DNA from: Rhodospirillales bacterium
GTDB taxonomy: Bacteria; Pseudomonadota; Alphaproteobacteria; Bin95
Direction of reading: 5' to 3'
Assembly (NCBI GenBank): GCA_038143065.1
Contig: JAYQLI010000012.1
Location: 38,076-102,075, forward strand
DNA length: 64,000 nucleotides
Below, piece by piece: positions 13,687-64,000 of the stretch. A program made the position numbers and the translations under genes. Under the pieces are notes generated by a model. The model searched no databases. It was not told the origin of the DNA and saw only the letters and a program-made list of their open reading frames with translations. How positions within the stretch are numbered: the first letter of the stretch is position 1; the number at the start of each line of letters is the position of its first letter.

Positions 13687-13752
13687 AATTTAACTTTCCA
13701 AGCATGTTAGAAGGCGTCTAAAACGCCTCCGAACAGGTTGAATCAAGTGACT

Positions 13753-14745: not shown

Positions 14746-14925
14746 GATATCCTCCTTTGGTTCTTTTTACCGCGTTCCTGATTTCTTCTGGCGCGGCTTA
14801 TGTTGGAAAGATTACTGGGATTGACGCTGAAGATTAGTCGACAAAACTGTTCAGTTTTTACGATTAAATATTCAGGTTTAATCTGAAATAGTGGATAAAA
14901 ATTAAACATACCCAGGGAGTTCAAA

Positions 14926-17215: not shown

Positions 17216-17226
17216 AAGACAAACCA

Positions 17227-17826: not shown

Positions 17827-17845
17827 ACCTGCAGAGGATATTGGA

Positions 17846-18737: not shown

Positions 18738-19078
18738 TTGCAAATATTTTTTGCCAATGGCTGCGTATTGCTTCGGCGCCTTTTTTGAAATTAAAACGTT
18801 ATTAGGACTGGAAGTCAGCAACTTATTAAGTAGGCGCAAAATTACGCTTTGTCCGCAAAGCAGACCTCAGGCATTGGCCTTGCGAATGTCTGATTTGGGT
18901 TAAGGTACAAATCGAAACGCTAATTATGATTAAAATCAGGACCACATTTAGACCGCTTTATAATTTCATCTTAAAAATAAGTAATTGTAATTAAATAGAA
19001 GTATATAAAGTACGACGTCCTTCTGGCACCAATACTTTTTCAGTATAACTTATTGAAATTCCTTCGAGTTTAACCATC

Positions 19079-28663: not shown

Positions 28664-28883
28664 ATGAATATGGCGCCTGTTGGCGGAGCCACAGTCCTCT
28701 CCTGGGCACCAAAATTCTAGTATAATTTATAATAAAATAAGCAAAAACAGTGGTATAGATTTGAAGTGGACCACTTTTGGGACCGCTTGGAGGACCAGTT
28801 TGTCGAAACTGTTCGCTAAATTGTCAGTGTTAAACCACCAGTTTTACTTGCAACTAGGCAGCTAAGTCTCAAAGCTAACAGCT

Positions 28884-47050: not shown

Positions 47051-47069
47051 AAATTATTTCCCTAGATGT

Positions 47070-48278
47070 TCAAAAAAAGGCCTGCAAGCCGGTCTGTGCG
47101 CGGCCCAAGATAAGGGCATGCACATCATGGGTTCCTTCGTAGGTGTTAACCGTTTCCAGATTAACCATATGGCGGATCACCTGAAACTCCTCAGAAATTC
47201 CATTGCCTCCGTGCATGTCACGAGCATGGCGAGCAATTTCTAAGGCTTTGCCGCAATTATTACGCTTCATAATACTGATCATTTCTGGCGCAGCCTTTGC
47301 CTCGTCCATCAGGCGGCCAATGCGCAAGCTTCCCTGCAAACCAAGTGTGATTTCAGTTTGCATATTGGCCAATTTCAATTGGAAAAGTTGTGTTTGAGCA
47401 AGTGGTTTATTGAACTGTTTACGATCCAAACCATACTGGCGCGATGCATGCCAGCAGAATTCTGCAGCCCCCAGAACACCCCATGAAATACCGTAACGTG
47501 CCCGGTTCAAACACCCAAACGGCCCCTTAAGACCTTCGACATTCGGAAGCAGTGCATCTTCGCTCACTTCCAGGTTATCCATAACAATTTCGCCGGTGAT
47601 TGAGGTACGCAATGACATTTTACCGCCAATTTTAGGTGCCGAAAGACCTTTCATACCTTTATCCAGAATGAAGCCGCGAATTTTATCGCCATGGGCGTTA
47701 GATTTTGCCCAAACCACAAATACATCTGCGACTGGGCTGTTTGAAATCCACATTTTAGAACCGTTAAGGACATACCCGCCCTGCACTTTTTCTGCGCGGG
47801 TTTTCATATCACCCGGATCACTACCGGCATCTGGTTCAGTAAGCCCAAAACAACCGATGAATTCGCCACTGGCCAGTTTAGGTAAATATTTCTGACGCTG
47901 TTCTTCGGAGCCATAGGCATATATCGGATACATCACCAATGAGGATTGCACGGACATCATAGAACGGTACCCAGAATCAACACGTTCAATTTCGCGCGCA
48001 ACCAGCCCGTAAGTGACATAAGATGCGCCTAAACCGCCGTATTCCTCAGGAACGGTAACGCCAAGCAAACCCATTTCTCCCATTTCACGGAAAATTTTTG
48101 TTTCTGTGGTTTCATTGGCATAGGCTTCAATAACGCGAGGCTGTAGTTTTTCTTGAGCAAAGGTACGGGCTGAATCCCGCATCATCCGTTCTTCCTCATT
48201 GAGTTGCTGCTCCAGAAAAAATGGGTCATCCCAGTTAAAACAAGACAAGCCTGGGACGTCTTTGGGTTTTAGTGACAT
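47070..48278 (-). CDS. gcdH: Glutaryl-CoA dehydrogenase
   Basis: An intact 402-aa acyl-CoA dehydrogenase with the GcdH-type N-terminus [36 protein letters not shown], plus [14 protein letters not shown]. Confidence 0.9.
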
Positions 48279-48289
48279 ATGACTATCCT

Positions 48290-49522
48290 TTATGAAAGTT
48301 TGGCCACGGCGTTAGCAATACGCGCACAACCTTCTTTTAAATCCGCCATCGCATAGGCGTATGACAATCGAAAATGGCCGGACAAACCAAAAGCGCGCCC
48401 GGGCACAAGCGCAACGCCGGCACTGGCTAAGATGTATTCACAAAATTCGGCGTCAGTGGTTAGCTCGGTTCCATCTGGCGTTTTGAGGCCAAAGGTTTTC
48501 ACACATGAGGGAAAAACATAAAACGCACCGCCCGGGGTGGGGCAATCAAGGCGCCGTGTTTTGTTCAATGCATCCACCACATAGTCTCGACGTTCTTTGA
48601 AAGACGCTAGGCGTTTGCTCAGAACATCTTGTGGCCCTGTAAGGGCAGCAATTGCGGCGGCCTGCGAAATTGAGCATGCTCCAGATGTGGATTGGCCCTG
48701 CACGCCCACCATTGTAGCGATAAGTTCACGCGGGCCAATGCCCCAGCCCAAACGCCAACCAGTCATGGCATAGGCTTTGGACACACCATTTACAATGAGC
48801 ATGCGGGCCAAAAGGTCGGGCGCAATTTCACGGAATGATGTGAAAGTATCATATGAGATATGTTGATAAATTTCATCTGCCAATATCCAAACATGCGGGT
48901 TTGCACGCAAAACATCAGCGAGAGCAGATAATTCTTGTGAAGAATATAACGCGCCAGACGGATTGCCAGGTGAATTCAGCAATAACCATTTTGTTTTTGA
49001 TGTAATTGCGGCAGACAGTTGTGCTGGGGATAGCTTGAAATTTGTTTCGCCAGTGCATGCGACTGGCACTAAATTAGCCTGACAAAACGCTACTATGTCG
49101 GCGTATGATGTCCAATAAGGCGCAGGAACAATAACTTCGTCTCCTTGATTAAGCGTGGCCAGGAAAGCATTTGATAGCACCTGTTTCGCTCCTGTACAGA
49201 CGATCACTTCGGTTTTGTCCGGTTTTCCGCTTGGGCCGGAAGCCGTGTGTTCTATAATGGCCTTCCTTAAAGAAGGTATGCCCTGCGTTGGTGGGTAAGT
49301 TGTTTGCCCTGCTAGCATAGCAGAATGCGCGGCTTCGATGATATTCATTGGTGTTGGGAAATCTGGTTCGCCGGTACCAAAACTAAGAATATTCTCACCT
49401 TTAGCTTTGCGGGCTTGCACTGATTCTGAAATCCGAACGATTTCGGATAGTTTAACAGCTGCAGCGCGGTCAGATCTAGCAAACATAGGTGTTTTAATTT
49501 TTGTGTTCATTACGATACGCAA
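48290..49522 (-). CDS. Class I/II (aspartate-type) pyridoxal-phosphate aminotransferase
   Basis: Contains [12 protein letters not shown] and [17 protein letters not shown] motifs. The ORF is uninterrupted. The true start may be the internal MNTKIK at about 49510. Confidence 0.85.
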
Positions 49523-49603
49523 TTATTTTTGTTGATATGAAACAGATATCTTTATTAATATCGAATATTACGGACAAATTTTACGAAATTTTGGAATTAG
49601 ATC

Positions 49604-50524
49604 ATGTCAAAATGGAATGATACTTCCATCCCGAGGAGGTTCCTACCTCCGTTTGCGTGGCTCGCCTCGTTCGAAGCAGTTGCAAGGCGCGGATCGGTCA
49701 CAACTGCGGCCCATGAACTAAACCTTACGCAAGGCGCGGTCAGTCGCCATGTGCAAAAGCTGGAACAGCAAATCGGTGTGCAGTTGTTTGAACGGGATAA
49801 GCAGCGCCTGCATTTAACGGGGTCGGGTAAGACTTATGCAGAAGAGGTGCGCCAAGGCATAAGCCAAATAACCAACGCTGGCGTCAAATTGCATACTAAC
49901 CCTAATGGGGGCGCGTTGAATTTAGCGGTGCTACCAGCATTCGGAACCCATTGGTTAGCGCCGCGTTTGGCGGATTTCATTGGCCAGTGTCCTGGCGTGA
50001 CAGTCAATCTGTCAACGCGAACCCGTCCTTTTGACTTTTCGAACGAGAATTTTCACGCGGCCATACATTTTGGATTGAACGACTGGCCGGACGTGAACAG
50101 CTTGTTTTTAATGGAAGAAGAAGTAGTTGCCATTGCAGCACCCCTGATCGTGAAGCCAAGCGCCGCAAACGATATGGACGAGATTCTGAAAATGCCACTG
50201 TTGCATCTGCAGACACGGCCGGCAGCGTGGAGCCGTTGGTTTGCGCAACAAGATTTAGACGTGAAAAATATAACCGGCATTCAGTTTGACCAGTTTGCGA
50301 CGATGATACAAGCAGTAGTTTCTGGCCTTGGCGCGGCAATTGTGCCCAAATATCTTGTCGAGAACGAGCTAAAACAAGGGAGACTGGTTGGGCTGGGCGG
50401 TTCTGCGACATCTGTAATTGGATCGTATTTTCTTGTATGGCCAGAACGCAGCGCACATCATCCCCCGGTTATGGCTTTCCAAAAGTGGATGAAATCCCTG
50501 GTAGGAGAAAACGCAATAATTTAA
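49604..50524 (+). CDS. LysR-family (GcvA-like) transcriptional regulator, divergent from the aminotransferase-gcdH operon
   Basis: The HTH is FEAVARRGSVTTAAHELNLTQGAVSRHVQKLEQQIGVQLFER. Intact, 306 aa. Confidence 0.85.
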   Translation: MSKWNDTSIPRRFLPPFAWLASFEAVARRGSVTTAAHELNLTQGAVSRHVQKLEQQIGVQLFERDKQRLHLTGSGKTYAEEVRQGISQITNAGVKLHTNPNGGALNLAVLPAFGTHWLAPRLADFIGQCPGVTVNLSTRTRPFDFSNENFHAAIHFGLNDWPDVNSLFLMEEEVVAIAAPLIVKPSAANDMDEILKMPLLHLQTRPAAWSRWFAQQDLDVKNITGIQFDQFATMIQAVVSGLGAAIVPKYLVENELKQGRLVGLGGSATSVIGSYFLVWPERSAHHPPVMAFQKWMKSLVGENAII

Positions 50525-51033
50525 CCATCGGAGGTTGCCAGTTTTTTCTTAGATGGTTGTTGATTGGGACGCCAAGGTGCACGGCTACTGTGATCATTGG
50601 CAGAAATCAGTTTTTGGGTCAGCGTCATATACAAAGCGTATTCTTCATCTGTCAGAGGATCTATCAGCCGCCTTTGTGCTTTCACCATTCCAGGTTTCAC
50701 TTTTTCGACAAGCTGGCGTCCCGCAAGGGTTATTTTGGCCAGCTTTGTGCGTTTGTCTGTCGGATTATCGGGCCGCTCCAGTAACTCGCGTTTGGCCAGA
50801 CGTCTGATAACATCCGCAGCGGTGTTTCTGTCCACGCCAATCATTGAGGCAATGGTAACCTGATCGCGAACATTGCCATCTACAAGTACCGTAAGCACAC
50901 CAAATTGGACAGGTGTTAGATCATGCTTGCCGCATTCCTCCAGAAAAAGGGCTACGTGGATTTGGTGCAACCGCCGAATAAGGTGTCCCGGTCGATCTGT
51001 AAGGTTTTGAAAAATCGAATCATCAACTGACAT
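50521..51033 (-). CDS. MarR-family transcriptional regulator, divergent from hyuA
   Basis: Contains LTPVQFGVLTVL...QVTIASMIGVDRNTAADVIRRLAKRELLERPDNPTDKRTKLAKITLAG. Intact, 170 aa. Confidence 0.85.
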   Translation of the reverse strand: MSVDDSIFQNLTDRPGHLIRRLHQIHVALFLEECGKHDLTPVQFGVLTVLVDGNVRDQVTIASMIGVDRNTAADVIRRLAKRELLERPDNPTDKRTKLAKITLAGRQLVEKVKPGMVKAQRRLIDPLTDEEYALYMTLTQKLISANDHSSRAPWRPNQQPSKKKLATSDG

Positions 51034-51181
51034 AGAGGCTCTGGTTTTAATTACTGCTTAATCGGTATTATATACCAAAGCACCGTGATTTAAACCAGCG
51101 CTTGAAAATGTAAGGTACAGCGGGCCGCACACAGGAAGAGCCACAAGGTGTGTGGATGACGGATAAAAAAATGTCTTTTAT

Positions 51182-51209
51182 TTGACACCGCCAATTTCCG
51201 TAGTACACT
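51182..51209 (+). promoter_or_regulatory. Candidate sigma70-type promoter for the hyuA array: TTGACA, 16 nt, TACACT
   Basis: Read directly. Nearby palindromes GGTAT-tat-ATACC (51066-51078) and CCACA-aggtg-TGTGG are candidate MarR sites. Confidence 0.3.
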
Positions 51210-51246
51210 ACCTAATATTGTGTGTTCGAACTTTGGAGAAAACCGT

Positions 51247-53319
51247 ATGGGTTGGACAGTTGGTGTGGATGTCGGCGGGACATTTACTGATTTTTATGCA
51301 GCGAACGATCAAACCGGAGTGTTTCACGTTCACAAAACGTCGTCCACGCCTTCGAACCCAGCTGAAGCAATTCTAAATGGTCTTGACGTAATGTGCACCA
51401 AGTTCGATATCCCAGCGGATGAAATCGAACGGGTGTCCCATGGAACAACAGTTGGCACCAATGCGCTGATCCAGCGCACTGGAAGCCGTGTGGCCTTGGT
51501 AACAACCAAAGGGTTTTGCGATCTGTTGGAAGTTGGTCGCCAAACGCGCCCTCATATGTATGACTTGCAACGGGATCACCCCGATCCGCTAGTGGATCGG
51601 GAATACCGCATTGAACTGAATGAACGTATCGGCGCAAAGGGTGAAATCGTTCGCGCTCCGAGTGCTGAGGATATCGATGCGGCTGTTGATGAAGTGATTT
51701 CTGTGGCTGCAGGCGCCTGCGCCATTGGGTTTGTTTTTTCGTTCAGAAATGACAGCCACGAACAAGCGTTTGCAAAGGCCTTGCGCAAACGTGCACCAGA
51801 GATTGCGGTTTCGGTGTCCTCCGAAGTACAGCCAGAATTTCGCGAATATGAACGACTATCCACAACAGTTCTCAACGCCTATTTGCAGCCTGTTATGTGG
51901 CACTATTTGGAAACCTTGGAAGCAGGGATCGCAGAACGTGCGCCCAATGCCAGCCTTGGGATTAACCAATCAAGTGGTGGATTGATGTCGGTTCAGCGGT
52001 CAAGGGAATTTCCAGTGCGGACTGCTCTGTCTGGTCCTGCTGCAGGTGCAGTGGGCGCGGCCCATGCGGCACGTCAAACAGGACGCCGCAATATCATTAC
52101 GCTCGATATGGGTGGCACCAGTGCCGATGTAGCGTTGATCCGTGACTACAGCGTTGATCTGGCGTTTGATCGTGATGTAGCTGGCTTTCCTATTCGGATG
52201 CCGTGCGTTGATGTGGAAACTGTTGGTGCGGGTGGTGGCTCGATTGCGTGGTTTGATCGTGATGGTCTGTTGAAGGTTGGTCCAAAATCCGCAGGGGCGT
52301 ATCCCGGACCCGCGTGTTACGGCAATGGCGGCGACGAACCGACAACAACGGATGCGAACCTATTGCTAGGTCGTTTGTCTTCACGCGGTTTGCTGGATGG
52401 TGAAATGGGGCTTGATCCAGAGTTATCCCGTGCAGTTTTTAAGCCGATTGCGGATCAGTTGGGTTTTACCCTCGAAAAAACCGCACAGGGGATGCTGGGT
52501 ATCGTAATTGCCAATATGGTGCGAACGATCCGCACCATTTCTGTTGAGCGTGGACATGATCCGCGTGACTTTGTGCTGATGCCATTTGGTGGCGCTGGGC
52601 CTCTGCACGCCCGTGATGTGGCTGTAAGCCTCGGCATGAAAGAAATGGTTGTGCCCGCCGCACCTGGTATCGTTTGTGCTCAGGGTCTGTTAGTGTCTGA
52701 TTTGAAAGAAGATTTTGTTGTCAGCCGCCGTATTGCATTGGATGACACTGGGATCGGTGTTTTGGCGCAAACATTAGCAGACTTGCACACCAAAGCCGTG
52801 GATTGGTTTGCCAAGGAGAAAGCCCCTGAAACTGGTCGTAGTGTTCAATTGATTGTGGATGCGCGGTATGTGGGTCAAAACTTTGAACTTGCAGTGCCCG
52901 TGGCCGCAGGTGCGCAGTTATCTGTAAACGATGTACCAAATGCCCAAACGGTGACCAAAGCATTCTGTGATGCGCATGATCAAGCTTATGGCTACGCCAG
53001 CGAAACTGATCCCGTTGAAATAGTGAATGTTCGCTTGTCGGCACGTGCAAAGTTACACACATTCGAGGACAAACCAGCCGTAGATAGTGAAATAGATGAA
53101 CCACAGGTGCGCGACACTCGTTTAGTTTATTATGATAGCGATGCTCCTGTTGAATCGCGTATTTACGACAGTGCGGAAATGCGCCCGGGCCAACGGGTCA
53201 CCGGCCCAGCGGTTCTGGAGCAAATGGACACGACCACACCAGTTTACCCTGGTGATGTTGCTGAAATGACGCCCGATGGGCATTTGATTATCACCATAAA
53301 GCCGGAGGACCTTGCATGA
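51247..53319 (+). CDS. hyuA: Hydantoinase/oxoprolinase A subunit (HyuA family, ATP-dependent)
   Basis: MGWTVGVDVGGTFTDF is the typical N-terminus. Also present are LDMGGTSADV and VETVGAGGGSIAW. The ORF is uninterrupted to 53319. Confidence 0.85.
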   Translation: MGWTVGVDVGGTFTDFYAANDQTGVFHVHKTSSTPSNPAEAILNGLDVMCTKFDIPADEIERVSHGTTVGTNALIQRTGSRVALVTTKGFCDLLEVGRQTRPHMYDLQRDHPDPLVDREYRIELNERIGAKGEIVRAPSAEDIDAAVDEVISVAAGACAIGFVFSFRNDSHEQAFAKALRKRAPEIAVSVSSEVQPEFREYERLSTTVLNAYLQPVMWHYLETLEAGIAERAPNASLGINQSSGGLMSVQRSREFPVRTALSGPAAGAVGAAHAARQTGRRNIITLDMGGTSADVALIRDYSVDLAFDRDVAGFPIRMPCVDVETVGAGGGSIAWFDRDGLLKVGPKSAGAYPGPACYGNGGDEPTTTDANLLLGRLSSRGLLDGEMGLDPELSRAVFKPIADQLGFTLEKTAQGMLGIVIANMVRTIRTISVERGHDPRDFVLMPFGGAGPLHARDVAVSLGMKEMVVPAAPGIVCAQGLLVSDLKEDFVVSRRIALDDTGIGVLAQTLADLHTKAVDWFAKEKAPETGRSVQLIVDARYVGQNFELAVPVAAGAQLSVNDVPNAQTVTKAFCDAHDQAYGYASETDPVEIVNVRLSARAKLHTFEDKPAVDSEIDEPQVRDTRLVYYDSDAPVESRIYDSAEMRPGQRVTGPAVLEQMDTTTPVYPGDVAEMTPDGHLIITIKPEDLA

Positions 53320-55011
53320 GCGAGCGCACAGTAGAACTCGATCCGATCCGTCTGGAAATTATCGCCAATGGTCTGCGCTCAATTGCGGATGAATGCTTTG
53401 TGGCGTTGATGCGGTCTTCGTATTCGACCAACATCAAGGAGCGCAAAGACCATTCCATTGCGATTGTAGACAAAGTCGGCCGTTTGGTTGTTCAGGCGGA
53501 ACTGACCCTGCCCATTCACATCGCCTCGATGGGGGGATTGATGAAATGTGTGTTGGAAAAATTTGGCGACGACATCAATGAAGGCGATATCTTTGTAGCC
53601 AACGATCCACACACGGCGGGCGGCACACACTTGCCTGATATTAACTACGCAATGCCGATCTTTATTGACGGCGAGATCGTAGCTTTTGTGTGCAACATCG
53701 CCCACCACGCCGATATCGGTGGTATGGTTCCGGGTTCTATGGCGGGTGGCATGTCGGAGATTTATCAGGAAGGGCTGCGTATTCCCGCTGTCCGCCTGTT
53801 TAACAAAGGTATTTTGCAACAAGATATCATGGATATCATGTTGTTGAACGTTCGAGTTCCCGAAGAACGCCAAAGGCGATCACAACGCACAAATTGCGTC
53901 GTGTCGATTGGGCGAACGGCGGTTCAAAGAAGTTGTCGGAGTTCATGGATTGTCAAGCGTTGTGACAGCGTTTGATGAAATTATCAGCCGTACAAACCAG
54001 CGGATGAAAGACACTATCGCGCAGATACCTGATGGAGTTTATGAATTCAAAGACTACATGGATTCAGATGGTCTCTCGACCTACGATATTCCGATTTGCC
54101 TGAAACTGACGGTTAAAGGCGAACGTATCCATCTGGATTTTGCGGGCACCAGCCCACAGGTTAGAGGTAACATCAACACGACATTAAATGCAGTACAGGC
54201 CAGTGTGAGTTATGCGTTGATCGGGGCATTAGACAGCGAAATGCCATCCAACCAAGGTGTGTTGGACGCGGTTGATATTTCATGTGGATCTGGCACGATT
54301 TTGAACTGTGTCTTCCCAGCCCCCGTAGCGGCGCGTGCGCATGCCTGCCAACGGGTGATTGATATTGTTCTTGGCGCCTTGTCCAAAGCGATCCCAGACA
54401 AGGTGATTGCAGCGGCGAACGGAGCCAATACAACGGCTGTTTTTTCGGGCGTCGATCCTCGCACTGGTAAACCGTATCTGTACTTTGAAACCATCGGAGG
54501 TGGTATGGGTGCACGGGCGACCAAAGACGGCAAAGATGGCGTTCAAGTTGGCATAACCAACACATCAAACCTGCCAGTGGAATCCATTGAACAAGAATAC
54601 CCGCTGCGGGTCGAAGAATACGGCTTTGTCGAAAACTCTGGCGGCGCGGGTGAATTTCGTGGGGGCATGGGATTGCGCCGCGTGTTAACACCTGTGGACC
54701 ATGAATGTGTGTTCAACGGCGCGGGCGAACGGTTCCGGTATCAACCTTGGGGGTTGTTTGGCGGCGAAGCAGGTGCGTCTGGCCAATTCCAGATCGAAGA
54801 CGCTGATGGCATACGCCGTTTGGACGACAAACCGAATGAGGTTGAAGTCAAACTGGGCACGCGCATAACAGTGGAAACACCGGGCGCGGGTGGCTATGGC
54901 AAACCTGCTAAGCGGAATGCAGAAGCTGTAAAACGAGACCAAGAGAGCGGAAAATATTCGCCAGAGTTCATAAAAGAAAACTATGCAGAAACCAACTTCG
55001 GGGAGCAATAA
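53316..55011 (+). pseudogene. hyuB: Hydantoinase/oxoprolinase B subunit (HyuB family), single frameshift at about 53872-53880
   Basis: Contains DPIRLEIIANGLRSIADE...FVANDPHTAGGTHLPDIN...NVRVPEERQ. The frame then switches to GDHNAQIASCRLGERRFKEVV (ORF 53908..55011). The start overlaps the hyuA stop (ATGA). Confidence 0.8.
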
Positions 55012-55012
55012 C

Positions 55013-56050
55013 ATGCGTGTCTACTCTATGGTACGGCCCAAGAAACTGTCGGAAATGCCAGAAGCAATGGCACGGGCAGAACGGCTTGGCTATGACGGGA
55101 CAACTTTGCTGGAACTGACTGTTCCACCAACCTTGTCTGCTGCGGCTGGAGCGATGCTAACCAAAGATATCAAGATGATGTCTGGCGTTTTTGTTGCCTT
55201 TCCCCGTAGCCCGATGGCAACCGCCTATGATGCGTGGTCGTTGAATGAATTGTCGGGTGGGCGTTTCCAGCTTGGCCTTGGCAGCCAGATCAAGGCCCAC
55301 ATTACGCGCCGCTTTGGTATGGAGTATTTGCCGGTGATCCGTCGGATGAAAGACTACATCAACGCTTTGAACGCAATTTGGGATTGTTGGCAGGATGGAA
55401 CTAAACTGGATTATGATGGCGTGTATTACAAACACAACCTCATGATACCGTATTACAACCCTGGCCCATTAACGACCGGCAAGCCGGAAATCCATTTGGC
55501 CGCGATCAACAAATTAATGTGTCGGTTGTGTGGTGAGGTTGCAAACGGCCATTTACCCGGTGATCCGATCACATGGAAATGGCACGAGGAAGTCATGTTG
55601 CCCAACCTTGAGATAGGTTTGGAACGTTCCGGTCGCACGCTCAAAGACCTCGATCTGGGTGGCTATGGCTTCATCGGCTGTGCGACAAATACCGAGGGGC
55701 TGGATCGCGTTGCCAATGGTTTGAAAGAGCGGGTTGCATTATATGCGTCGACGCCAGAATATGCAGAAATGTTGTCAATGTTTGGTTGGTCGGTGAGCCA
55801 AGAAGATTTCGCCAATCTGTCCCGTCAAGGTAAATGGGCCGAAATGGGAAATCTGGTAACTGATGATATGCTTGAAGCCTATTCGGTGATTACAACACCG
55901 GAAGACCTGCCTTCTGCTTTGGCCAAAAGGTATGGTGGAAAAGTTGATCGCATCCCAATTGATGAAACATGGTTTGATGGTTTGACTGATGATCAAGTTG
56001 AAACACTGGTAACTGAAATTAAGAAAATACCCAGCCATGCTGACGGTTGA
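55013..56050 (+). CDS. Luciferase-like monooxygenase (LLM) family oxidoreductase, probably F420-dependent
   Basis: Contains MRVYSMV...AERLGYDGTTLLELTVPP...GGRFQLGLGSQIKAHITRRFGMEY, a TIM-barrel LLM pattern. Its position next to the F420 genes supports the cofactor assignment. Confidence 0.7.
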   Translation: MRVYSMVRPKKLSEMPEAMARAERLGYDGTTLLELTVPPTLSAAAGAMLTKDIKMMSGVFVAFPRSPMATAYDAWSLNELSGGRFQLGLGSQIKAHITRRFGMEYLPVIRRMKDYINALNAIWDCWQDGTKLDYDGVYYKHNLMIPYYNPGPLTTGKPEIHLAAINKLMCRLCGEVANGHLPGDPITWKWHEEVMLPNLEIGLERSGRTLKDLDLGGYGFIGCATNTEGLDRVANGLKERVALYASTPEYAEMLSMFGWSVSQEDFANLSRQGKWAEMGNLVTDDMLEAYSVITTPEDLPSALAKRYGGKVDRIPIDETWFDGLTDDQVETLVTEIKKIPSHADG

Positions 56051-57548
56051 ACCCTTTCTTCAAAACGCCGATACCAGAGACTTTGCAGCTGAAGAATGGG
56101 ATCGACTGTGCGCCCGTGATCCGTCAGCTTTGGCGGTTGCCGAAATTGACCGTGAAATCACTGTTGGTGAACTGATCAAACAGGCTCGTGTGCGGGCGGG
56201 ACAGTTTATTGCACAAGGCGCGGAGCCAGGATCTCGGGTGATTGTTGCGCGCCCGAACGTGATCGAATTTGTGGTGGATTATCTCGCGGTTCGTCTTTGT
56301 GGTGCTGTATTGGTCAACCTTCCTTGGGCCGCAGGGACCAGCATCACGGAATTGGCAGAAATTCTGGACGCCAAAGTGGTTGTGCTGACCGAACATCTTG
56401 TTGGCGACAATCCTTTGTTTGATCAACTGGGAGATCGTCGTTTTCGTGAAGATGAAACCACCGACATCGGACCAGAACGCCCTGTTGCACGGAGCGGCGA
56501 AGAATTGGCTTGGTTGGCCTGCACGTCTGGCACCACAGGTACGCCCAAGGCGGCGATGCATACGGGCGCCACGTGGCAGCGCCAAACCGAGGTATTTGCC
56601 CAACATTTTAGGCTGACCAAAGACGACCCGATTTTGGTGTCTGCGCCTGTCGGTCACGCAGTTGCATTGTTGTTCGGTGTGCGGTTCTCGCTGTTGCTGG
56701 ATTCACCGATGATTTTGGTGTCTCGTTGGAAAATCGACACGGCGGTGGATTTGATTGAGCGTTATAATTGTACCTTCACAGTTGCGCCGACGCCGTTTCT
56801 GATTGATATGGTTTCCTTTGCTGAACAAAACGGCAACGAGCGAGTGAAATCGCTGAAATTCTTTCCATCTGCTGGTGCGCCTGTGCCACGCACATTGGTG
56901 CGTCGTGGCTTGGATGCTTTGCCCGGGTGTCAGGTTTGGTCCTATTTTGGAACGTCGGAAGCGGGCGCGGTAACGGCCTGCCCGTTGGACGCTGATTTGG
57001 AGAATCGTCTAGAGACAGATGGAATAGCGATGCCCGGCACAACAACCCGTGTCGTTGATAATGAGCTGCAAGTGCACTGCCCTGAACAAATGATGACAGG
57101 GTATTGGAGCGGCGATCCGAATGGGCGGCTGCATGATGATGGCTGGTATCAAACTGGCGATGCTTGCGAACAGCGTGAAGATGGCTATATCAAGATGGTA
57201 GGACGTGCGCAGGATATCATTCTGCGTGGCGGAGAGAACATCTCACCGTTAGAGATCGAAAACACGTTGCTGAGCCATACTAGCGTCGAAGATGTTGCCA
57301 TTATTGGCTATCCTGATGAGCGTCTGGGCTCTCGATTGGCGGCAGTAGTTGTTCAAACGGCTGATGTGACGCTGGACGATTTGCGTGATCATTGTAAAGG
57401 TGTTGGGCTTGATAAGGCAAAGTGGCCGGAATTCATGACATGCATCGACAAAATTCCACTGTCCGCAATTGGCAAAGTCCAACGCGGCGTTTTGGAAGAT
57501 TACGTTTGGGATGAAGTCAAGAAAACCGCAAAGAAAGGTGTTTCCTAA
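56037..57548 (+). CDS. AMP-dependent synthetase/ligase (acyl-CoA ligase family)
   Basis: Contains LACTSGTTGTPKAAMHT (AMP-binding motif), GYWSGD, YQTGD and GKVQRGVL. Intact, 503 aa. Confidence 0.85.
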   Translation: MLTVEPFLQNADTRDFAAEEWDRLCARDPSALAVAEIDREITVGELIKQARVRAGQFIAQGAEPGSRVIVARPNVIEFVVDYLAVRLCGAVLVNLPWAAGTSITELAEILDAKVVVLTEHLVGDNPLFDQLGDRRFREDETTDIGPERPVARSGEELAWLACTSGTTGTPKAAMHTGATWQRQTEVFAQHFRLTKDDPILVSAPVGHAVALLFGVRFSLLLDSPMILVSRWKIDTAVDLIERYNCTFTVAPTPFLIDMVSFAEQNGNERVKSLKFFPSAGAPVPRTLVRRGLDALPGCQVWSYFGTSEAGAVTACPLDADLENRLETDGIAMPGTTTRVVDNELQVHCPEQMMTGYWSGDPNGRLHDDGWYQTGDACEQREDGYIKMVGRAQDIILRGGENISPLEIENTLLSHTSVEDVAIIGYPDERLGSRLAAVVVQTADVTLDDLRDHCKGVGLDKAKWPEFMTCIDKIPLSAIGKVQRGVLEDYVWDEVKKTAKKGVS

Positions 57549-57549
57549 T

Positions 57550-57990
57550 ATGGGAATGCGTCACAACAATCTGACGATTGATGACATACAGGAACGGATC
57601 AACCGCTCCAAATACCATCAATTATTCCAACCAAAAGTGCTGGAACTGGACAACGAAATAGAAAGGCTAAAGCTGCGGGTATCGATGTGTGATGAGTTTG
57701 AACGCCAGCCAGAAACAAATCAGTGGCATGGTGGCGTAATTGGATCCTTGGTGGATATCACTGGATGCTATGCGTTGATGCTGGTCGCTGGTGGCCCGAT
57801 GCTTACGCTGAATTTCAGCACGGATTTCCTGCGCCTTGCAGTGTCAGACCATCTGTATGCCATTGCAACCGTGCGGCGCATTGGGAGCACAGTTGGATTT
57901 GTAGATGTTGAAATCGAAGATGATGTAGGGGTGACAGTTGTAACGGGTCGTGCCTGTTATGCCATCCGCGCAAACAAAACAGAGGTATAA
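57550..57990 (+). CDS. PaaI/hotdog-fold thioesterase
   Basis: Contains QWHGGVIGSLVDITG (HGG..D motif). The start was chosen at the MGMRHNN ATG, 1 nt after the ligase stop. Confidence 0.7.
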   Translation: MGMRHNNLTIDDIQERINRSKYHQLFQPKVLELDNEIERLKLRVSMCDEFERQPETNQWHGGVIGSLVDITGCYALMLVAGGPMLTLNFSTDFLRLAVSDHLYAIATVRRIGSTVGFVDVEIEDDVGVTVVTGRACYAIRANKTEV

Positions 57991-58007
57991 GCCTGAGAGG
58001 TGAAGAC

Positions 58008-58691
58008 ATGACTGAATATTCCGAAAGTATGAACATTGCTATCATCGGTGGTACCGGCGCATTGGGCGCTGGGTTGGCACTGCGTTGGGCGCGAGCTGGC
58101 CACAACGTGGCCATCGGGTCGCGCGATGGCGGGCGTGCTACTGATAGAGCCGCCGAGTTGTCCGCGCAAGCAGGTGCGAAAATTACAGGACATGACAATG
58201 CAACGGCTGCAGCCGGTGGCGATCTAGTCGTTATGGCAGTGCCTTATGCAAGCCACACGGCGACGTTGAACAGCATCAAACCGCATCTAGAAGGTAAAAT
58301 TTACGTTGATGTTACCGTTCCATTGATACCCCCAAAAGTGCGCACAGTTCAATTACCAGAGAGCGGTTCGGTCGCCAAGAATGTGCAAAAGGAACTGGGC
58401 GAAACTGTTCGTGTTGTTTCTGCGTTTCAGAACGTCGCAGCGGCTCATTTGAATGATCTGGATCACAGTATTGATTGCGACGTATTTGTTTGTGGTAACG
58501 ACAAGCCTGCGCGCGGAACGGTTATCAAGCTGGCCCAAGACGCGGATATGAAAGCTTGGCACGCAGGACGGATTGACAATTCCGCCGTAGCTGAAGCATT
58601 GACCTCTGTTTTGATCTTCATCAATGGAGCCTACAAAATCGACGGCGCAGGCATCAAAATCATTGGCAAACCACAACTTCAAGACGACTAA
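58008..58691 (+). CDS. npdG: NADPH-dependent F420 reductase (Fno/NpdG)
   Basis: Contains IAIIGGTGALGAGLALRWARAGHNVAIGSRD, a Rossmann motif typical of NpdG. Intact, 227 aa. Confidence 0.8.
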   Translation: MTEYSESMNIAIIGGTGALGAGLALRWARAGHNVAIGSRDGGRATDRAAELSAQAGAKITGHDNATAAAGGDLVVMAVPYASHTATLNSIKPHLEGKIYVDVTVPLIPPKVRTVQLPESGSVAKNVQKELGETVRVVSAFQNVAAAHLNDLDHSIDCDVFVCGNDKPARGTVIKLAQDADMKAWHAGRIDNSAVAEALTSVLIFINGAYKIDGAGIKIIGKPQLQDD

Positions 58692-58709
58692 GTCAACGAA
58701 GGAATTCGC

Positions 58710-59489
58710 GTGTCAATCCAAATTACCCTTACGGCGCTACAGGATCTCCCGCTTGTAAAATCGGGGGACGATCTTTGCAGTTTGATAACAGACGGTTTGA
58801 CACGTTTGCCACTAGTGCTGTGTGATGGCGACATCATTGTCGTGGCGCAGAAAATAATTTCCAAAGCCGAAGGGCGTACAGTAAATTTGAACACTATCTC
58901 TCCCAGCGCGCGGGCGATGGAATTGGCGGGTGAAACGCAAAAAGATGCCCGTGTTGTTGAGTTGATCCTCAGCGAAAGCAAATCCATCGTTCGCAAGAAA
59001 CCAGGCGTGATGATTGTTGAACACAATCGCGGCTGGATCATGGCAAACGCGGGAATTGATACGTCGAATGTTCGGTCCGACAGTGGTGAAGAAAACGTTC
59101 TATTACTGCCACTGGATCCAGAACAGAGTGCAACAAACTTGCGCGATGCATTGATGCAGCGGCACGGTTGCGATGTCGCTGTGGTTGTTTCTGACAGTTT
59201 CGGACGGCCCTGGCGGTTAGGTACAACGGGTGTCGCAATTGGCGCCTCTGGACTACCGAGCCTGTGGGACAGACGCGGCGAAGTTGATTTGTTTGGACGC
59301 AAACTGATTGTCACACAACAAGCCATCGCAGACGAAGTCGCTACGGCCGCATCATTATTGCAGGGGCAAACCGCCGAAGGGCGACCTGTGGTGCATATGC
59401 GGGGGCTGGAATTTGGAGGTCATGCCTCGGCGCATCATCGCCCTGCCTCTGATCTGATCCGTGATATCGCCGAGGATATGTTCCGATGA
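58710..59489 (+). CDS. cofE: Coenzyme F420-0:L-glutamate ligase
   Basis: Contains LPLVKSGDDL...DGDIIVVAQKIISKAEGR...GWIMANAGID.SN...VVSDSFGRPWRLG. Confidence 0.85.
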   Translation: MSIQITLTALQDLPLVKSGDDLCSLITDGLTRLPLVLCDGDIIVVAQKIISKAEGRTVNLNTISPSARAMELAGETQKDARVVELILSESKSIVRKKPGVMIVEHNRGWIMANAGIDTSNVRSDSGEENVLLLPLDPEQSATNLRDALMQRHGCDVAVVVSDSFGRPWRLGTTGVAIGASGLPSLWDRRGEVDLFGRKLIVTQQAIADEVATAASLLQGQTAEGRPVVHMRGLEFGGHASAHHRPASDLIRDIAEDMFR

Positions 59490-60433
59490 GCGGAGCCGTT
59501 GTAACCTTGTCTGGTGGCGTCGGCGGTGCCAAACTGGTGCTGGGCATGTCCTATGTTGTTGCGGGCAGAGAACTGGTCGTTGTTTGCAATACTGGCGATG
59601 ATTTCACGCATCTCGGTCTGCGAGTATGCCCCGATATCGATTCCGTTCTATATGCGCTGTCTGGCCTGTCTGATCAGACGCGGGGTGGGGAAGAAAAAGA
59701 CGAATCTTGGACCTTTATGTCCGCGATGAAGGATTTGCAGGGACCAGATTGGTTCAATCTGGGTGACAGAGATTTGGCCACGCATGTTTTGCGCACAGAT
59801 ATGTTGGCGCAGAATAAAACGATGACGGAAGTGACCGGTAATTTGGCGCTGCGGATGGGTATCGAGGCGGATATTCTGCCGATGAGCGATGATCCCGTTG
59901 CGACTATTGTTCATACAGACGCAGGTGATCTGGCATTTCAGCATTATTTTGTGCGCGAGCAATGCGGACCGCGTGTTGCTGGGTTCTCTTTTGATGGAAC
60001 CGAAAATGCGGAACCACAGCCGCAGATATTGGACGTGCTGCAATCTGACCCAGAATCTATTATCATCGCGCCGTCTAACCCTTACGTTAGTGTTGATCCC
60101 ATTTTGCAGCTGAAAGGAATGAAGACGGCGCTGAAAAATGCAGGCGCTCCCATTGTGGCCGTCTCGCCGATTATTGGTGGGAAAGCCATCAAAGGGCCAG
60201 CTGCCAAGATGATGCAAGAGTTGGGCAAAGACGTTTCGGTGCTTAGCATTGCAGCTCACTATCAAGATTTGATCGACGGTCTGGTGATTGATGTTAAGGA
60301 CGCAGAATTGGCACCGCAAATTCGCGAGATGGGGATAAAAACCCTCGTCACACAATCAGTCATGACTGATCTGAACAGTCGCATTGAATTGGCACAAGCG
60401 ACGCTGGATTTCGCACGGGACTGTGGGTCATGA
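59486..60433 (+). CDS. cofD: 2-phospho-L-lactate transferase
   Basis: Contains VVTLSGGVGGAKLVLGM...NTGDDFTHLGLRVCPDIDSVLY. A 4-nt overlap joins it to cofE. Confidence 0.85.
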   Translation: MSGAVVTLSGGVGGAKLVLGMSYVVAGRELVVVCNTGDDFTHLGLRVCPDIDSVLYALSGLSDQTRGGEEKDESWTFMSAMKDLQGPDWFNLGDRDLATHVLRTDMLAQNKTMTEVTGNLALRMGIEADILPMSDDPVATIVHTDAGDLAFQHYFVREQCGPRVAGFSFDGTENAEPQPQILDVLQSDPESIIIAPSNPYVSVDPILQLKGMKTALKNAGAPIVAVSPIIGGKAIKGPAAKMMQELGKDVSVLSIAAHYQDLIDGLVIDVKDAELAPQIREMGIKTLVTQSVMTDLNSRIELAQATLDFARDCGS

Positions 60434-61098
60434 CCGATGTCATAATTCCAGTCAAAGATTTGTCACGAGCCAAAGGACGGTTGCAAAACATCTTGACCCC
60501 CGCCGAGCGTGCGGGTCTTGTTTTGGCAATGTTACACGATCTGCTAACGACGCTTAATCAGTGTGCTTTGGGAGATATCTGGCTTGTCGCATGTGATGAA
60601 GCTGTGTTTGATCTCGGGGCAGAATTCGGGGTCCATGATATCCGTGAACACGTTTCAAAGGGTTACAATCACGGCGTTTCTGCGGGATTGCAGTCCGTTA
60701 ACGCAAAGAATTCAGTTGTTATTCTTCCCGCTGATCTGCCATTGGCAAAGCCCCACGACATTGCGCAGTTGATTCAAGCAGGAGCTGGTATCAATCCAAC
60801 GGTTGCGATTGTGCCTGATCGTCACAATCGTGGGACAAATGGGTTGTTTCTATCTGCTCCTGATTTGATCACACCTGACTTCGGTGAAAGCAGTCTTTTC
60901 AATCACAAGGTTGCCGCCGCACAACTCAGTATTTCCGCACATGTCGTTCCTATCGAAGCAATGGCGATGGATATTGATAGCCCAGAGGATCTTTTTGCGG
61001 TGGCTCAATCGACGACATCCAATTCCACTACGAATTTTCTGGCATCCATTGCGTTTGGACAAGATGCGTGGACTTCACATAAATGGGAGGTCGCATGA
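60430..61098 (+). CDS. cofC: 2-phospho-L-lactate (or related) guanylyltransferase
   Basis: Contains IIPVKDLSRAKGRL...ERAGLVLAMLHDLL...LPADLPL. 4-nt overlaps occur on both sides. Confidence 0.8.
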   Translation: MTDVIIPVKDLSRAKGRLQNILTPAERAGLVLAMLHDLLTTLNQCALGDIWLVACDEAVFDLGAEFGVHDIREHVSKGYNHGVSAGLQSVNAKNSVVILPADLPLAKPHDIAQLIQAGAGINPTVAIVPDRHNRGTNGLFLSAPDLITPDFGESSLFNHKVAAAQLSISAHVVPIEAMAMDIDSPEDLFAVAQSTTSNSTTNFLASIAFGQDAWTSHKWEVA

Positions 61099-63437
61099 CC
61101 TACGCTTCAAGCCAATCCACACTGCCCCATTACGTATCCGCTGACGAGGCAAAAGTATTTCTGAATAGGCCGATCGATACTCTGATGGCATGTGCAACCC
61201 AAATACGAGACGAGGGGCATGGGCGGCTGGTCAGCTATTCGCGCAAAGTGTTCATTCCTTTGACCAAATTGTGCCGTGATGTTTGTCATTATTGCACTTT
61301 TGCCAAAACGCCCAAAAAGATTGATGCGCCATTTCTAAGCCCTGAACAAGTGCTTGAGATCGCGCGCGCTGGTCAGGTTGCTGGATGTAAAGAAGCCTTG
61401 TTCACGCTCGGCGACAAACCGGAACTGCGATATTCCGTTGCGCTTGAAGCTTTGGCGGAAATGGGCTATGAAACCGACGCTGGATTACCTGCATGCAATG
61501 GCGGAATTGGTGATCAACGAAACCGGTCTTTTGCCCCATCTTAATCCCGGCGTGATGACCCGCAATGAACTGGCGAAGTTGCGCGAAGTTTCAGTTTCTA
61601 TGGGAATTATGCTGGAGTCGACCTCGTTGCGGTTAATGGAGCAGGGAGGGTGCCACTTTGGCTCACCTGACAAAGATCCTGCTGTTCGATTGAAACGATC
61701 CGTAATGCGGGCGAACTGAAAATCCCGTTCACCAGCGGCATTTTGATTGGAATCGGAGAAACGCGTGCGGATAGAATTGAAAGCCTTCTGGCCTTGCGCG
61801 ATTTGCACCAAGAATTTGGCCACATTCAGGAAATAATTATCCAGAATTTCCGCGCCAAGCCAAATACGAAAATGGCCGATGTGCCCGAACCTGATTTGAC
61901 TGACTTGCAGTGGACCATCGCGATTGCGCGGGTTATTTTTGGGGCTGAGATGTCAATACAAGCGCCCCCAAATTTGTCTGATGGTGGTGCAGGGTTGATC
62001 GCTGCGGGGATAAACGATTGGGGTGGTGTTTCACCTGTTACGCCGGATCATGTGAACCCAGAGGCCCCTTGGCCTCTTTTGGATCAACTTGCTGATGATA
62101 CCGCAGGTTGTGGAAAGATATTGGTAGAACGGTTGGGGATTTACCCGAACTATGCGCATCAAAATACGGTTTGGCTGGATAAAAAGCTGCGTAAACCAGT
62201 GCTTGATCTGATTGATGCCGATGGATTGGCACGCACGGACAGTTGGGTTCCAGGTGATGCATCCCAAGATTTACCCAAGCTGCCGAAATCGCCTGCGGTC
62301 ATTCCAGACATGGGTCTGTCACGCGTTTTGGTGAAGGCAAATAAGGGTGAGAACCTGTCCGAAGCAGATATCTGCCGCCTTTTGACCGCACGGGATTGCG
62401 AAGTTCATGAGGTCATGCAAGCCGCAGATGACGTTCGCAAACGGGTGAGTGGCGAAACGGTGAGTTATGTTGTAACACGCAACATCAACTATACCAATAT
62501 CTGTTATTTTAAATGCAAATTCTGCGCCTTTTCCAAAGGCAAGATGAGCGATAACCTGCGCGGTCGCCCCTACAATTTGGGCGCTGATGTTGTGGTTGAG
62601 CGTGCGCGCGAAGCATGGGATCGCGGCGCGGTTGAGGTTTGTTTACAGGGCGGTATTCATCCCGAATATACAGGCCAAACCTATCTTGATATTCTGAGTG
62701 CAATCAAATCTGAGCTGCCTGATATGCACGTCCATGCGTTTTCCCCGCTAGAGGTGCACCAAGGGGCCGCTACGTTGGGTGTTTCAGTCTATGATTTTAT
62801 TGGGCAGTTAATTGACGAAGGATTGGGCAGCTTGCCTGGCACTGCGGCAGAAATTTTGGACGATGAAGTGCGACGTGATTTGTGCCACGACAAGATCAAT
62901 ACAGCCGAATGGTTCGAAGTGGTGAACGCGGCACATAAACAGGGGCTAAAAACTACTGCAACAATCATGTTTGGCCATATTGACCGACCCGTGCATTGGG
63001 CGCGGCATATGCTGCGTCTGCGGGATCAACAGACTAAAACTGGTGGATTTACCGAATTAGTACCCTTGCCGTTTGTTCATATGGAATCACCGATTTACTT
63101 GAAGGGTGGGTCGCGTAAAGGGCCAACTTGGCGGGAATCCGTGTTGGTTCATTCCGTTGCGCGTTTGGCGTTGAACCCGCTGATCCCAAACATTCAGGCC
63201 TCTTGGGTCAAGCTCGGCCCGGAGGGCGTCGCGGCTTGTTTGTCCGCCGGAGTGAACGACATTGGCGGCACTTTGATGGATGAGACCATCACACGCTCTG
63301 CTGGGGCGGCGCATGGGCAGGAAATGACACCTTCCGCGATGGAAGAGTTGTTGTTGCGCCAAGGCCGCCCATCGCGGCAACGCACGACACTATATCAAGA
63401 TGCGGCAAAGGATCGGCGTTTAGCTTCATTTGCTTAG
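61095..63437 (+). pseudogene. fbiC: FO synthase (fused CofG/CofH, FbiC), two frameshifts in the CofG half
   Basis: The radical-SAM motif is CRDVCHYCTF. The frame switches after EMGYET to [25 protein letters not shown] (about 61475). It switches again after DKDPAVRL to [24 protein letters not shown] (about 61695). The CofH half, 61743..63437, is intact (CYFKCKFCAF). Confidence 0.85.
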
Positions 63438-63462
63438 CCTTTGCAGTTCTATGGTTGGATTG

Positions 63463-64000
63463 TTAGCCGACCTGATTAGGCAGCCACGTGGCAATAGCTG
63501 GAAAAGCGACAATCAGCGCTATACCCAACAAGAACAGCGCGACAAACGGCCAGGTTGCGCGGTAAACTTGACTGATGCTCATGTCTGGCACGACGGCCTT
63601 GAACGCGAACAACGTATATCCGAATGGCGGAGTGATCGCGCCAAGGGTAATGTTGACGAGGAACAGCAGCCAGAACCAAACTGGATCAAACTCCAGCGCA
63701 GTGACGACGGGTTGGTAGATCGGGATCGTCAGTAAGATCACTGCGATCGTGTCGATGAACATACACAGAATAAACGGGACCGCTAGCATGACAAGCAACA
63801 TCGCAATCGGAGAGTATCCAAGATTGGCAACTAGATTAACCAGTTCACCGGTCGCGCCGGTGAAAGCGAGCAGCTGTGTGAACATCTTAGACATCGCCAT
63901 AATGGCTAAGATCATTGCAGAAACTTTTATCGCGGCCATTAGCGAGTCCAAGATCATCTGTAATGAAAGCTTCCGGTAGATAGCTGCGGTTAACAACGAT
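63463..64000 (-). CDS. dctM: TRAP transporter large permease (DctM family), C-terminal part; the gene continues beyond the window
   Basis: Contains ITPPFGYTLFAFKAVVPDMSISQVYRATWPFVALFLLGIALIVAFPAIATWLPN. The frame is open to the window edge. Confidence 0.8.
   Translation of the reverse strand, partial: SLLTAAIYRKLSLQMILDSLMAAIKVSAMILAIMAMSKMFTQLLAFTGATGELVNLVANLGYSPIAMLLVMLAVPFILCMFIDTIAVILLTIPIYQPVVTALEFDPVWFWLLFLVNITLGAITPPFGYTLFAFKAVVPDMSISQVYRATWPFVALFLLGIALIVAFPAIATWLPNQVG

Follow-up and report, generated by a model that had tools for sequence, protein, structure and literature searches.

Cofactor F420 serves catabolism in the npd cluster for picrate and 2,4-dinitrophenol of Rhodococcus and Nocardioides, in which NpdG is encoded together with the LLM-type hydride transferases NpdI and NpdC. 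In this system, reducing equivalents flow from NADPH to F420 via NpdG and are then handed as hydride by an LLM enzyme to the catabolic substrate, the genes being clustered with a regulator. The actinobacterial host makes its F420 from genes located elsewhere. The situation in other bacteria is less clear. According to a 2021 review, no F420-dependent enzyme from bacteria outside the Actinobacteria had been studied experimentally, and why Proteobacteria make F420 is an acknowledged open question (PMC8498797). Here we analyse a stretch of 64,000 nucleotides from a Rhodospirillales bacterium (assembly GCA_038143065.1, contig JAYQLI010000012.1, positions 38,076 to 102,075), referred to below as the window, in which a MarR-family regulator gene and ten genes on the opposite strand (50521-63437) bring a predicted F420-dependent LLM oxidoreductase together with a HyuAB amidohydrolase, a CoA ligase, a thioesterase and a complete set of genes for making and reducing F420.

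The logic proposed for this locus is that of the npd system, i.e., a passage from NADPH via NpdG to F420 and from there via an LLM to a catabolic substrate, under the control of a clustered regulator. The presence of two LLMs in npd also has its counterpart in most relatives of the present operon. What sets the latter apart is the full biosynthesis set within the operon and its proteobacterial hosts; moreover, the npd system is not known to include HyuAB, a TRAP transporter or a ligase and a thioesterase so arranged. Transient CoA activation followed by release through a hotdog thioesterase is known from the 4-chlorobenzoate pathway, where a CoA ligase acts on the substrate, the thioester is transformed and a 4HBT thioesterase completes the sequence. 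This likeness is one of logic only, and the 4-chlorobenzoate pathway is not known to involve a redox step or a lactamase. N-methylhydantoinase, the caprolactamase CapAB and 5-oxoprolinase share the two-subunit architecture and the full Pfam domains with the HyuAB found here but, unlike the latter, no described HyuA/HyuB lactam hydrolase is known to be associated with F420 or a CoA ligase. The catabolism of homarine was also considered and rejected, as homABCDER uses unrelated FAD, peptidase and aldehyde-dehydrogenase proteins, and the paper describing it mentions no F420, hydantoinase or CoA ligase (PMC13236597).

Other proteobacterial F420 cassettes come closer with respect to the cofactor genes: as in the window, a fused fbiC, cofC, cofD, a single-domain cofE and npdG lie beside at least one LLM. 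A search with FbiC against plasmids, which provides single examples, showed that the cassette npdG, cofE, cofD, cofC and fused fbiC recurs with different client genes. On Agrobacterium rubi pW2_73_1 (L096; loci are designated by L numbers throughout) the clients are a PxpABC-type ATP-dependent lactamase with a biotin carboxylase, an LLM and two aminotransferases, while S. meliloti pSymA (L093) carries a true dihydroorotase (PyrC) paralog, a CoA-transferase, a TIGR03619 LLM, a deacylase and a molybdenum hydroxylase. Croceicoccus marinus (plasmid; L095) and Aromatoleum EbN1 (plasmid 2; L094) have other client sets. BKACE and PNPOx plus crotonase are also among the clients of such cassettes, and all of these sets differ from the HyuAB set described here. 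Cassettes have in addition been reported in Paracoccus and Oligotropha (PMC8498797), and nodule competitiveness was linked to the S. meliloti pSymA cluster by a genome-wide association study, which proposed no function for it (PMC8407117). Since HyuAB and two unrelated cyclic-amide hydrolases thus occur beside F420 cassettes and LLMs, they lend indirect support to a cyclic amide as the substrate class. The "cyclic amide or imine" put forward in a preliminary description of the window therefore gains some ground, albeit indirectly and from single examples. None of the systems compared has the gene composition found here.

Taken together, the observations presented below make it rather likely, in our view, that the window contains one copy of a catabolic operon under MarR control, which is widespread among marine Alpha- and Gammaproteobacteria and endowed with its own cofactor supply, and that the breaks seen in its reading frames are assembly errors. 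Its substrate is probably a cyclic amide or imine that bears a carboxylate and is taken up from outside.

The identities of the genes were established by comparing Pfam and NCBIfam profile scores with curated cut-offs, and they bear out the array of ten genes on one strand with a divergent MarR gene that had been read from the sequence initially. The regulator gene (50521-51033, - strand) matches Pfam MarR with 38.2 bits (cut-off 24.6), and all ten genes that follow lie on the + strand. The first, hyuA (51247-53319), encodes the alpha subunit of an ATP-dependent hydantoinase/oxoprolinase-family amidohydrolase with Hydant_A_N, Hydantoinase_A and Hydant_A_C domains; its open reading frame (ORF) opens at GTG 51220, and ATG 51247 is the start used in relatives. 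The beta subunit gene hyuB (53316-55011), which matches the Hydantoinase_B profile on two ORFs and whose frame is broken here, precedes the gene for the LLM-class oxidoreductase of the F420-dependent type (TIGR03617, 345 aa; 55013-56050). Next come an acyl-CoA (AMP-forming) ligase with Pfam AMP-binding and AMP-binding_C domains (56037-57548) and a hotdog-fold, 4HBT/PaaI-like thioesterase (57550-57990; Pfam 4HBT, and TIGR00369 with 49.5 bits vs a cut-off of 36.6). The starts of the LLM and thioesterase genes, 55013 and 57550, were set by comparison with relatives. The cofactor genes complete the array: npdG/fno for an NADPH-dependent F420 reductase (58008-58691; TIGR01915, 204.6 bits vs 149.8), cofE for a single-domain F420-0:gamma-glutamyl ligase of 259 aa (58710-59489; TIGR01916, 273.4 vs 180.65), cofD for 2-phospho-L-lactate transferase, with an open ORF (59486-60433; TIGR01819, 291.5 bits vs 257.45), cofC for the guanylyltransferase (60430-61098; TIGR03552, 152.4 bits vs 105) and fbiC for a fused CofG-CofH FO synthase, which is broken here into three ORF pieces (61095-63437). 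The junctions agree to within a base or two with those given earlier (from a 14-nt overlap to 18-nt gaps): 4-nt overlaps are found at hyuA/hyuB, cofE/cofD, cofD/cofC and cofC/fbiC, the LLM stop and the ligase start overlap by 14 nt, single nucleotides separate hyuB from the LLM gene and the ligase from the thioesterase gene, and gaps of 17 and 18 nt flank npdG.

This arrangement is by no means a peculiarity of one genome. Conservation was scanned in a set holding a single genome for each GTDB species, with aligned LLM homologs as the query, and then by tblastn, for which the eleven proteins encoded in an intact relative and the second LLM of L002 served as queries; the loci counted are those whose LLM is at least 65% identical and whose contig reaches the position in question. 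About 40 species-level genomes of Alpha- and Gammaproteobacteria retain the core order. The LLM is preceded by HyuB in 38/38 loci and followed by the ligase in 35/35, and the thioesterase is present in 34/34, while the cofactor genes are somewhat more variable: NpdG follows in 31/34, and FbiC is present in 29/32, CofC in 28/32, CofE in 25/32 and CofD in 24/32. The hosts include Rhizobiaceae/Hoeflea (among them the cultured Hoeflea sp. TYP-13 and H. poritis E7-10), Paracoccaceae, Rhodospirillaceae, Geminicoccaceae, Kordiimonadaceae, Oceanospirillaceae (Ca. Njordibacter), Granulosicoccaceae, Acidiferrobacteraceae and a Bugula symbiont. LLM identity amounts to 70-85% across host classes, and we infer that the gene block has moved horizontally. 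The proposed association of F420 synthesis (FbiC, CofC, CofD, CofE) and recharging (NpdG) with client enzymes, together with the promoter/operator region, is accordingly shared by these approximately 40 genomes.

Within this theme there are variations. A second LLM lies between the ligase and the thioesterase in 30/34 loci (L002, L006-L038, L040 and L049); it belongs to TIGR03619, also an F420 class (173.9 bits vs a cut-off of 166.9), and is missing from the window and from L001, L003, L004, L039 and L050. In L015, L018, L035 and L050 the operon includes npdG-cofC-fbiC but neither cofE nor cofD, and L037, L039 and L040 retain the HyuAB-LLM module together with a TRAP transporter, with no adjacent cof genes at all. 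The constant part across relatives is thus the client module plus the TRAP transporter. In L001, a pair of IS-type transposase genes (HTH_Tnp_1, rve; 1664-2790) is found about 3 kb upstream of the cluster. The exact LLM protein of the window is recorded in 196 blocks of a public metagenome collection, which points to a common ocean population. None of the contigs in these 196 blocks is longer than 50 kb, and L083-L087 are 24-28 kb long and end only a few kb past the 21 kb that they share.

Regulation appears to be conserved along with the genes. A promoter candidate TTGACA-n16-TACACT had been proposed upstream of the operon, and such a motif is present on the + strand at 51182-51209, with the -35 box TTGACA at 51182-51187, a 16-nt spacer and the -10 box TACACT at 51204-51209. 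It matches the consensus at 10/12 positions and is the best match on the + strand of this region. Upstream of hyuA, TTGAC(T/A)-N16-TA(C/T)ACT is kept in 30 distinct loci from several families, and in these the -10 box sits inside the palindrome GTAGTAYACTAC. Motif comparison places the window version of the palindrome, GTAGTACACTAC, over the -10 box at 51200-51211, so that the candidate promoter and putative MarR operator together span 51182-51211. The MarR gene itself is present and divergent in 32 of the 34 relatives whose contig reaches that far. A palindrome covering the -10 box beside a divergent MarR gene is the usual layout of MarR repressors, and GTAGTAYACTAC is probably the MarR operator. 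With all genes on the same strand, junctions of -14 to +18 nt that leave no space for internal promoters, a conserved promoter and a divergent MarR gene, hyuA to fbiC are predicted to form a single operon under a MarR-type repressor. Scans for terminators and promoters within the operon gave counts no higher than chance. On the other side, where a candidate marR promoter is seen on the - strand (TTTAAA-16-TATAAT, 51094-51067), it is overlapped by a palindrome at 51064-51076, GGTATTATATACC; this palindrome is not kept in relatives, not even in L003.

The LLM scores 325.7 bits with TIGR03617 (cut-off 278.15) and its further profile matches are all to F420 classes, whereas models of the FMN type match at 1e-4 or worse. 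All six of its phmmer matches in the PDB are to the F420-dependent Mer (methylene-H4MPT reductase). Comparison of its AlphaFold model (mean pLDDT 78.8) by Foldseek leads to the same enzyme at ranks 1-8, with E values of 7e-18 to 6e-16 and TM-scores of 0.75-0.83, and FMN-dependent enzymes appear only from 3e-12. Placing the protein among F420- and FMN-dependent LLMs had been suggested beforehand as a check; the result supports the F420 type and predicts use of this cofactor, and a grouping with FMN-dependent monooxygenases was not obtained. The LLM and the ligase form an invariant pair, which is the sole shared part in a distant proteobacterial clade (L041-L048, L091 and L092), and TIGR03617 homologs of Rhodococcus sit in CoA-dependent catabolic clusters. 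It is probable from these gene associations that the LLM acts on the ligase product. In a search of plasmids for the TIGR03617 LLM, no proteobacterial carrier was found; such genes were seen only in Rhodococcus, Mycobacterium and haloarchaea.

In the preliminary description hyuB and fbiC were taken as intact. This does not hold for the window sequence, in which both are split by frameshifts. Alignment to close relatives located an extra A at 53872 (AA to AAA, +1) in hyuB, which leaves two ORFs (53316-53975 and 53908-55011) bearing positions 1-177 and 189-519 of the Hydantoinase_B profile, respectively. In fbiC, an extra base at 61474-61476 (+1) and a missing G at 61692 (GG to G, -1) create the three pieces, and three-frame translation shows the protein passing from frame 0 to +1 near 61475 and returning near 61700. 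A compensated pair of indels in cofD (G5 to G4 at 59682, A4 to A5 at 59694) keeps the frame and turns GWGR, a motif invariant in 32/32 readable CofD relatives, into GGEE. Comparison with four contigs (L083, L084, L086 and L087) that encode exactly the LLM protein of the window and are 99% identical to window positions 45010-64000 is instructive: every gene is intact in them, hyuB (564 aa) and fbiC (780 aa) are both uninterrupted, and the fbiC product of L083 reaches 1135.6 bits with NF006687 (cut-off 1018), the window copy carrying its two frameshifts. These contigs are independent metagenome assemblies, three with MEGAHIT-style names and one from JGI. All window-specific indels are changes of run length in a homopolymer or a GT repeat. 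Codon substitutions relative to L083 (10 synonymous and 6 non-synonymous in hyuB, 14 and 11 in fbiC) resemble those in the other genes. No record was returned for the truncated HyuB fragment, the variant CofD or the 727-aa E1 protein of the window. Because the 99%-identical contigs are intact, all indels affect run length and a DctM gene elsewhere in the window shows indels with almost no substitutions, the breaks in hyuB, cofD and fbiC are most probably homopolymer-type assembly (consensus) errors.

The principal alternative is that the breaks are real and the operon is being lost in this strain, with hyuB, cofD and fbiC inactivated as part of a wider decay that extends over the first 44 kb of the window. 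Three frameshifts and a ruined invariant CofD motif lie within 12.9 kb, positions 1-44 kb hold only gene fragments, with no ORF longer than 306 aa and a GC content down to 39-45%, and a further contig, L088, has the same 281-aa truncated DctM as the window. Nevertheless, we regard decay as unlikely. The four independent assemblies with intact genes come from the same population, all indels are changes of homopolymer or dinucleotide run length, and the synonymous/non-synonymous pattern of hyuB and fbiC is not relaxed. L085, a contig whose "contig_" name makes it look like a long-read assembly, carries other A-run indels, and these lie in hyuA and the ligase gene. Compensating pairs such as those in cofD and fbiC are also unexpected under decay, and a third is seen in the DctM gene at 11619-13019 (- strand): two compensating indels put residues 239-299, a stretch of 60 that includes a TGA, out of frame, while outside them the product has only 3 residue differences from database protein P0121. 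Programmed frameshifting in hyuB and fbiC was likewise discarded, the indels being absent from all close relatives, in which there is no conserved slippery motif. We thus retain assembly error as the most probable cause of the breaks.

For the region upstream of 44 kb two explanations are offered: either its indel error rate is far higher than that of 44-64 kb, or its genes have really decayed. The ORFs in 1-44000 match DctM (profile positions 2-247 of 413), Bmp (81-297 of 301), two BPD_transp_2 permease halves, PfkB, MipA, DLH and EamA. The GC content, about 52%, falls to the low values mentioned above between 20 and 44 kb. Recoding of TGA was tried as the reason for the short ORFs and rejected, since read-through lengthens some of them and leaves 20-44 kb empty and the DctM case is an indel pair. 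RNA genes do not account for the ORF-poor stretch either, no Rfam or tRNA match being found in the window. P0121 has 469 aa, and one source for it names Rhodobacteraceae bacterium SB2 of the CHAB-I-5 roseobacter lineage. The near identity of the two DctM proteins hints at a pelagic roseobacter as the host, yet the genome closest to the F420 cluster bears a Rhodospirillaceae label. L088 (ENA ERZ10646555 contig_1999) aligns to window positions 11500-18867 and 28694-29353; its identity to the window is 92%, 75 gaps open within 7.4 kb, and collinearity does not extend beyond 11.5 kb. Genes of L088, aconitase among them, are likewise broken into fragments.

What the operon acts upon may be judged from its surroundings. 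Next to the cluster, conservation extends to the genes of a convergent TRAP transporter (DctPQM), of which the window contains the 3' part of dctM (63463-64000, - strand; 97.8% identical to the DctM of L083) before the gene runs off its end. DctM is found downstream in 28 loci. In most relatives with a DctP this protein is 73-86% identical (47% in L026), also where no cof genes are adjacent; the HyuAB-LLM module is still accompanied by DctPQM in L037, L039 and L040. The only PDB match of the binding protein is a weak one, to 4mnc (2e-21). TRAP binding proteins recognise organic anions, and the substrate is therefore likely to be a carboxylate.

On the other side of the cluster, an operon encoding an aminotransferase, an acyl-CoA dehydrogenase and a fused E1 led to the more specific proposal of a lactam or piperideine carboxylate derived from lysine, such as valerolactam or 6-oxopipecolate, as the substrate, whose products would feed this aminotransferase/acyl-CoA dehydrogenase/2-oxoacid dehydrogenase set. 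The upstream operon does adjoin the cluster in the clade of the window: it is whole in L003, L001 and L004 have the aminotransferase and a LysR gene, with the E1 gene in L004 and not in L001, and in L002 the E1 gene alone stands beside the cluster. A sub-threshold match of the acyl-CoA dehydrogenase to glutaryl-CoA dehydrogenase (222 bits vs a cut-off of 470) would suit the proposal, as would the A. rubi F420 cluster, where gabT-type aminotransferases next to the PxpABC-type lactamase fit a conversion of a lactam to an omega-amino acid. The adjacency is however confined to this clade, about 35 other loci having no such operon nearby, and the proteins of the upstream operon all remain below NCBIfam equivalog cut-offs. 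The two units also seem to have separate histories. Relative to the nearest genome, L003 (UBA4479, labelled Rhodospirillaceae), the upstream operon (45018-49800) is about 80% identical and the cluster about 97%, with a step at approximately 49.7-49.8 kb, inside the LysR gene 49604-50524, which suggests that the cluster was recombined or transferred independently of the upstream operon. Moreover, from what is established about TRAP transporters (and not from a tool result), valerolactam and caprolactam have no carboxylate to offer to such a transporter or to a CoA ligase. The lysine connection made in the preliminary description is therefore regarded as weak and improbable, and the wider class of carboxylated cyclic amides or imines is kept.

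A lactam-opening role of HyuAB fits its relationships. The best PDB matches of HyuA are N-methylhydantoinase (7hk5, 2e-146) and caprolactamase (6yra, 4e-113), and complete A and B domains are present, Hydantoinase_B being covered over positions 1-519. The caprolactamase equivalogs are not passed (551 bits for alpha and 305 for beta, with a cut-off of 1000 each). The same family also includes ATP-dependent ketone carboxylases, and HyuA matches the acetone/acetophenone carboxylases at 1e-61 to 1e-75 as well as acetophenone carboxylase models. That HyuAB would be a carboxylase of this kind and not a lactam hydrolase is nonetheless very improbable, in view of the far better matches to N-methylhydantoinase and caprolactamase and of the fact that the operon encodes just two subunits and lacks a further one of the carboxylase kind. 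Less can be learned about the substrate from the ligase and the thioesterase. The former falls under every NCBIfam equivalog cut-off, its best models being medium-chain and cyclohexanecarboxylate CoA ligases, and its PDB matches are weak and mixed, with 4-chlorobenzoate CoA ligase among the best (1e-36). The latter matches only an uncharacterised protein.

As far as the cofactor is concerned, CofC, CofD and CofE all exceed their equivalog cut-offs, with the caveat that the GWGR motif of CofD is altered in the window. CofE carries the F420_ligase domain only, without the nitroreductase domain of FbiB. A dehydro-F420-0 reductase is needed if phosphoenolpyruvate (PEP) is the substrate, and is dispensable if 2-phospho-L-lactate (2-PL) is used. 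Proteobacteria may also employ 3-phosphoglycerate (3-PG): the 3PG-F420 system of Mycetohabitans rhizoxinica likewise has a proteobacterial cofC/cofD/cofE/fbiC set, and Ser/Thr at the position of S162 in Mrhiz-CofC is diagnostic of a 3-PG-using CofC (PMC8764529). In contrast to CofC of the M. rhizoxinica type, the CofC encoded here, aligned to 7p97 and 6bwg, has Gly at the 2-PL/PEP-diagnostic position (F-G-E-S-S vs F-S-G-P-S in 7p97). Having Gly instead of Ser/Thr, it would be expected to give the classical side chain. It has been shown, on the other hand, that proteobacterial CofC enzymes accept several substrates (PMC8764529). One might argue from this wide substrate range, from the lack of an FbiB reductase domain and from the almost constant proximity of the non-cof genes to the cof genes that the former serve to make or tailor the cofactor (by supplying a side-chain precursor, reducing dehydro-F420-0 or modifying the deazaflavin) and have no part in catabolism, but this is hardly credible when the module and the TRAP transporter persist in L037, L039 and L040 without adjacent cof genes, other proteobacterial F420 cassettes lack HyuAB, ligase and thioesterase, and MarR, TRAP, CoA ligase and thioesterase make up a typical catabolic set.

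If the operon is catabolic, its products could cooperate as follows. The MarR protein would repress transcription by binding to the palindrome over the -10 box. The TRAP transporter would take up a carboxylate bearing a cyclic amide or imine, which the ligase would convert to its CoA thioester. FbiC, CofC, CofD and CofE would make F420 and NpdG would reduce it with NADPH, so that the TIGR03617 LLM could pass a hydride from F420H2 to the substrate, assisted in most relatives by the second LLM of the TIGR03619 class. HyuAB would open the lactam ring at the expense of ATP, and the hotdog thioesterase would either release the product or proofread.

A number of points weigh against this interpretation. 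The order of the steps is pure inference, and no equivalog cut-off is reached by HyuAB, the ligase or the thioesterase. No characterised member of TIGR03617 was found in the literature, which makes "F420-dependent" a computational label. The TRAP genes are convergent and hence not co-transcribed with the operon, and in some relatives cofE and cofD, or all cof genes, are missing from the vicinity. There is no dehydro-F420-0 reductase domain of the FbiB type in the cluster. The window itself has five damaging indels in three genes and a high density of gene fragments in 1-44 kb. Finally, no description of the cluster was found in the literature searched, the coverage of which was incomplete, such that a related operon may have been depicted earlier.

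More far-reaching, and as yet only a tentative suggestion, is the idea that we are dealing with the first F420-dependent catabolic pathway of Proteobacteria, which would provide a physiological reason for the presence of F420 in these bacteria. Its substrate would be a marine N-heterocyclic or cyclic-amide carboxylate, and mobile cassettes might have been recruited repeatedly, in conjunction with three unrelated ring-opening enzymes (HyuAB, PxpABC and a PyrC-like protein). The operon in any case offers a concrete and testable answer to what F420 does in Proteobacteria, with supply, recharging and client enzymes of the cofactor united in one regulated unit. It is conserved in about 40 marine species, including cultured Hoeflea, as well as abundant and experimentally tractable. 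Once its substrate is found, the carbon and nitrogen cycles of the sea would gain a further pathway, and biocatalysis new F420 enzymes.

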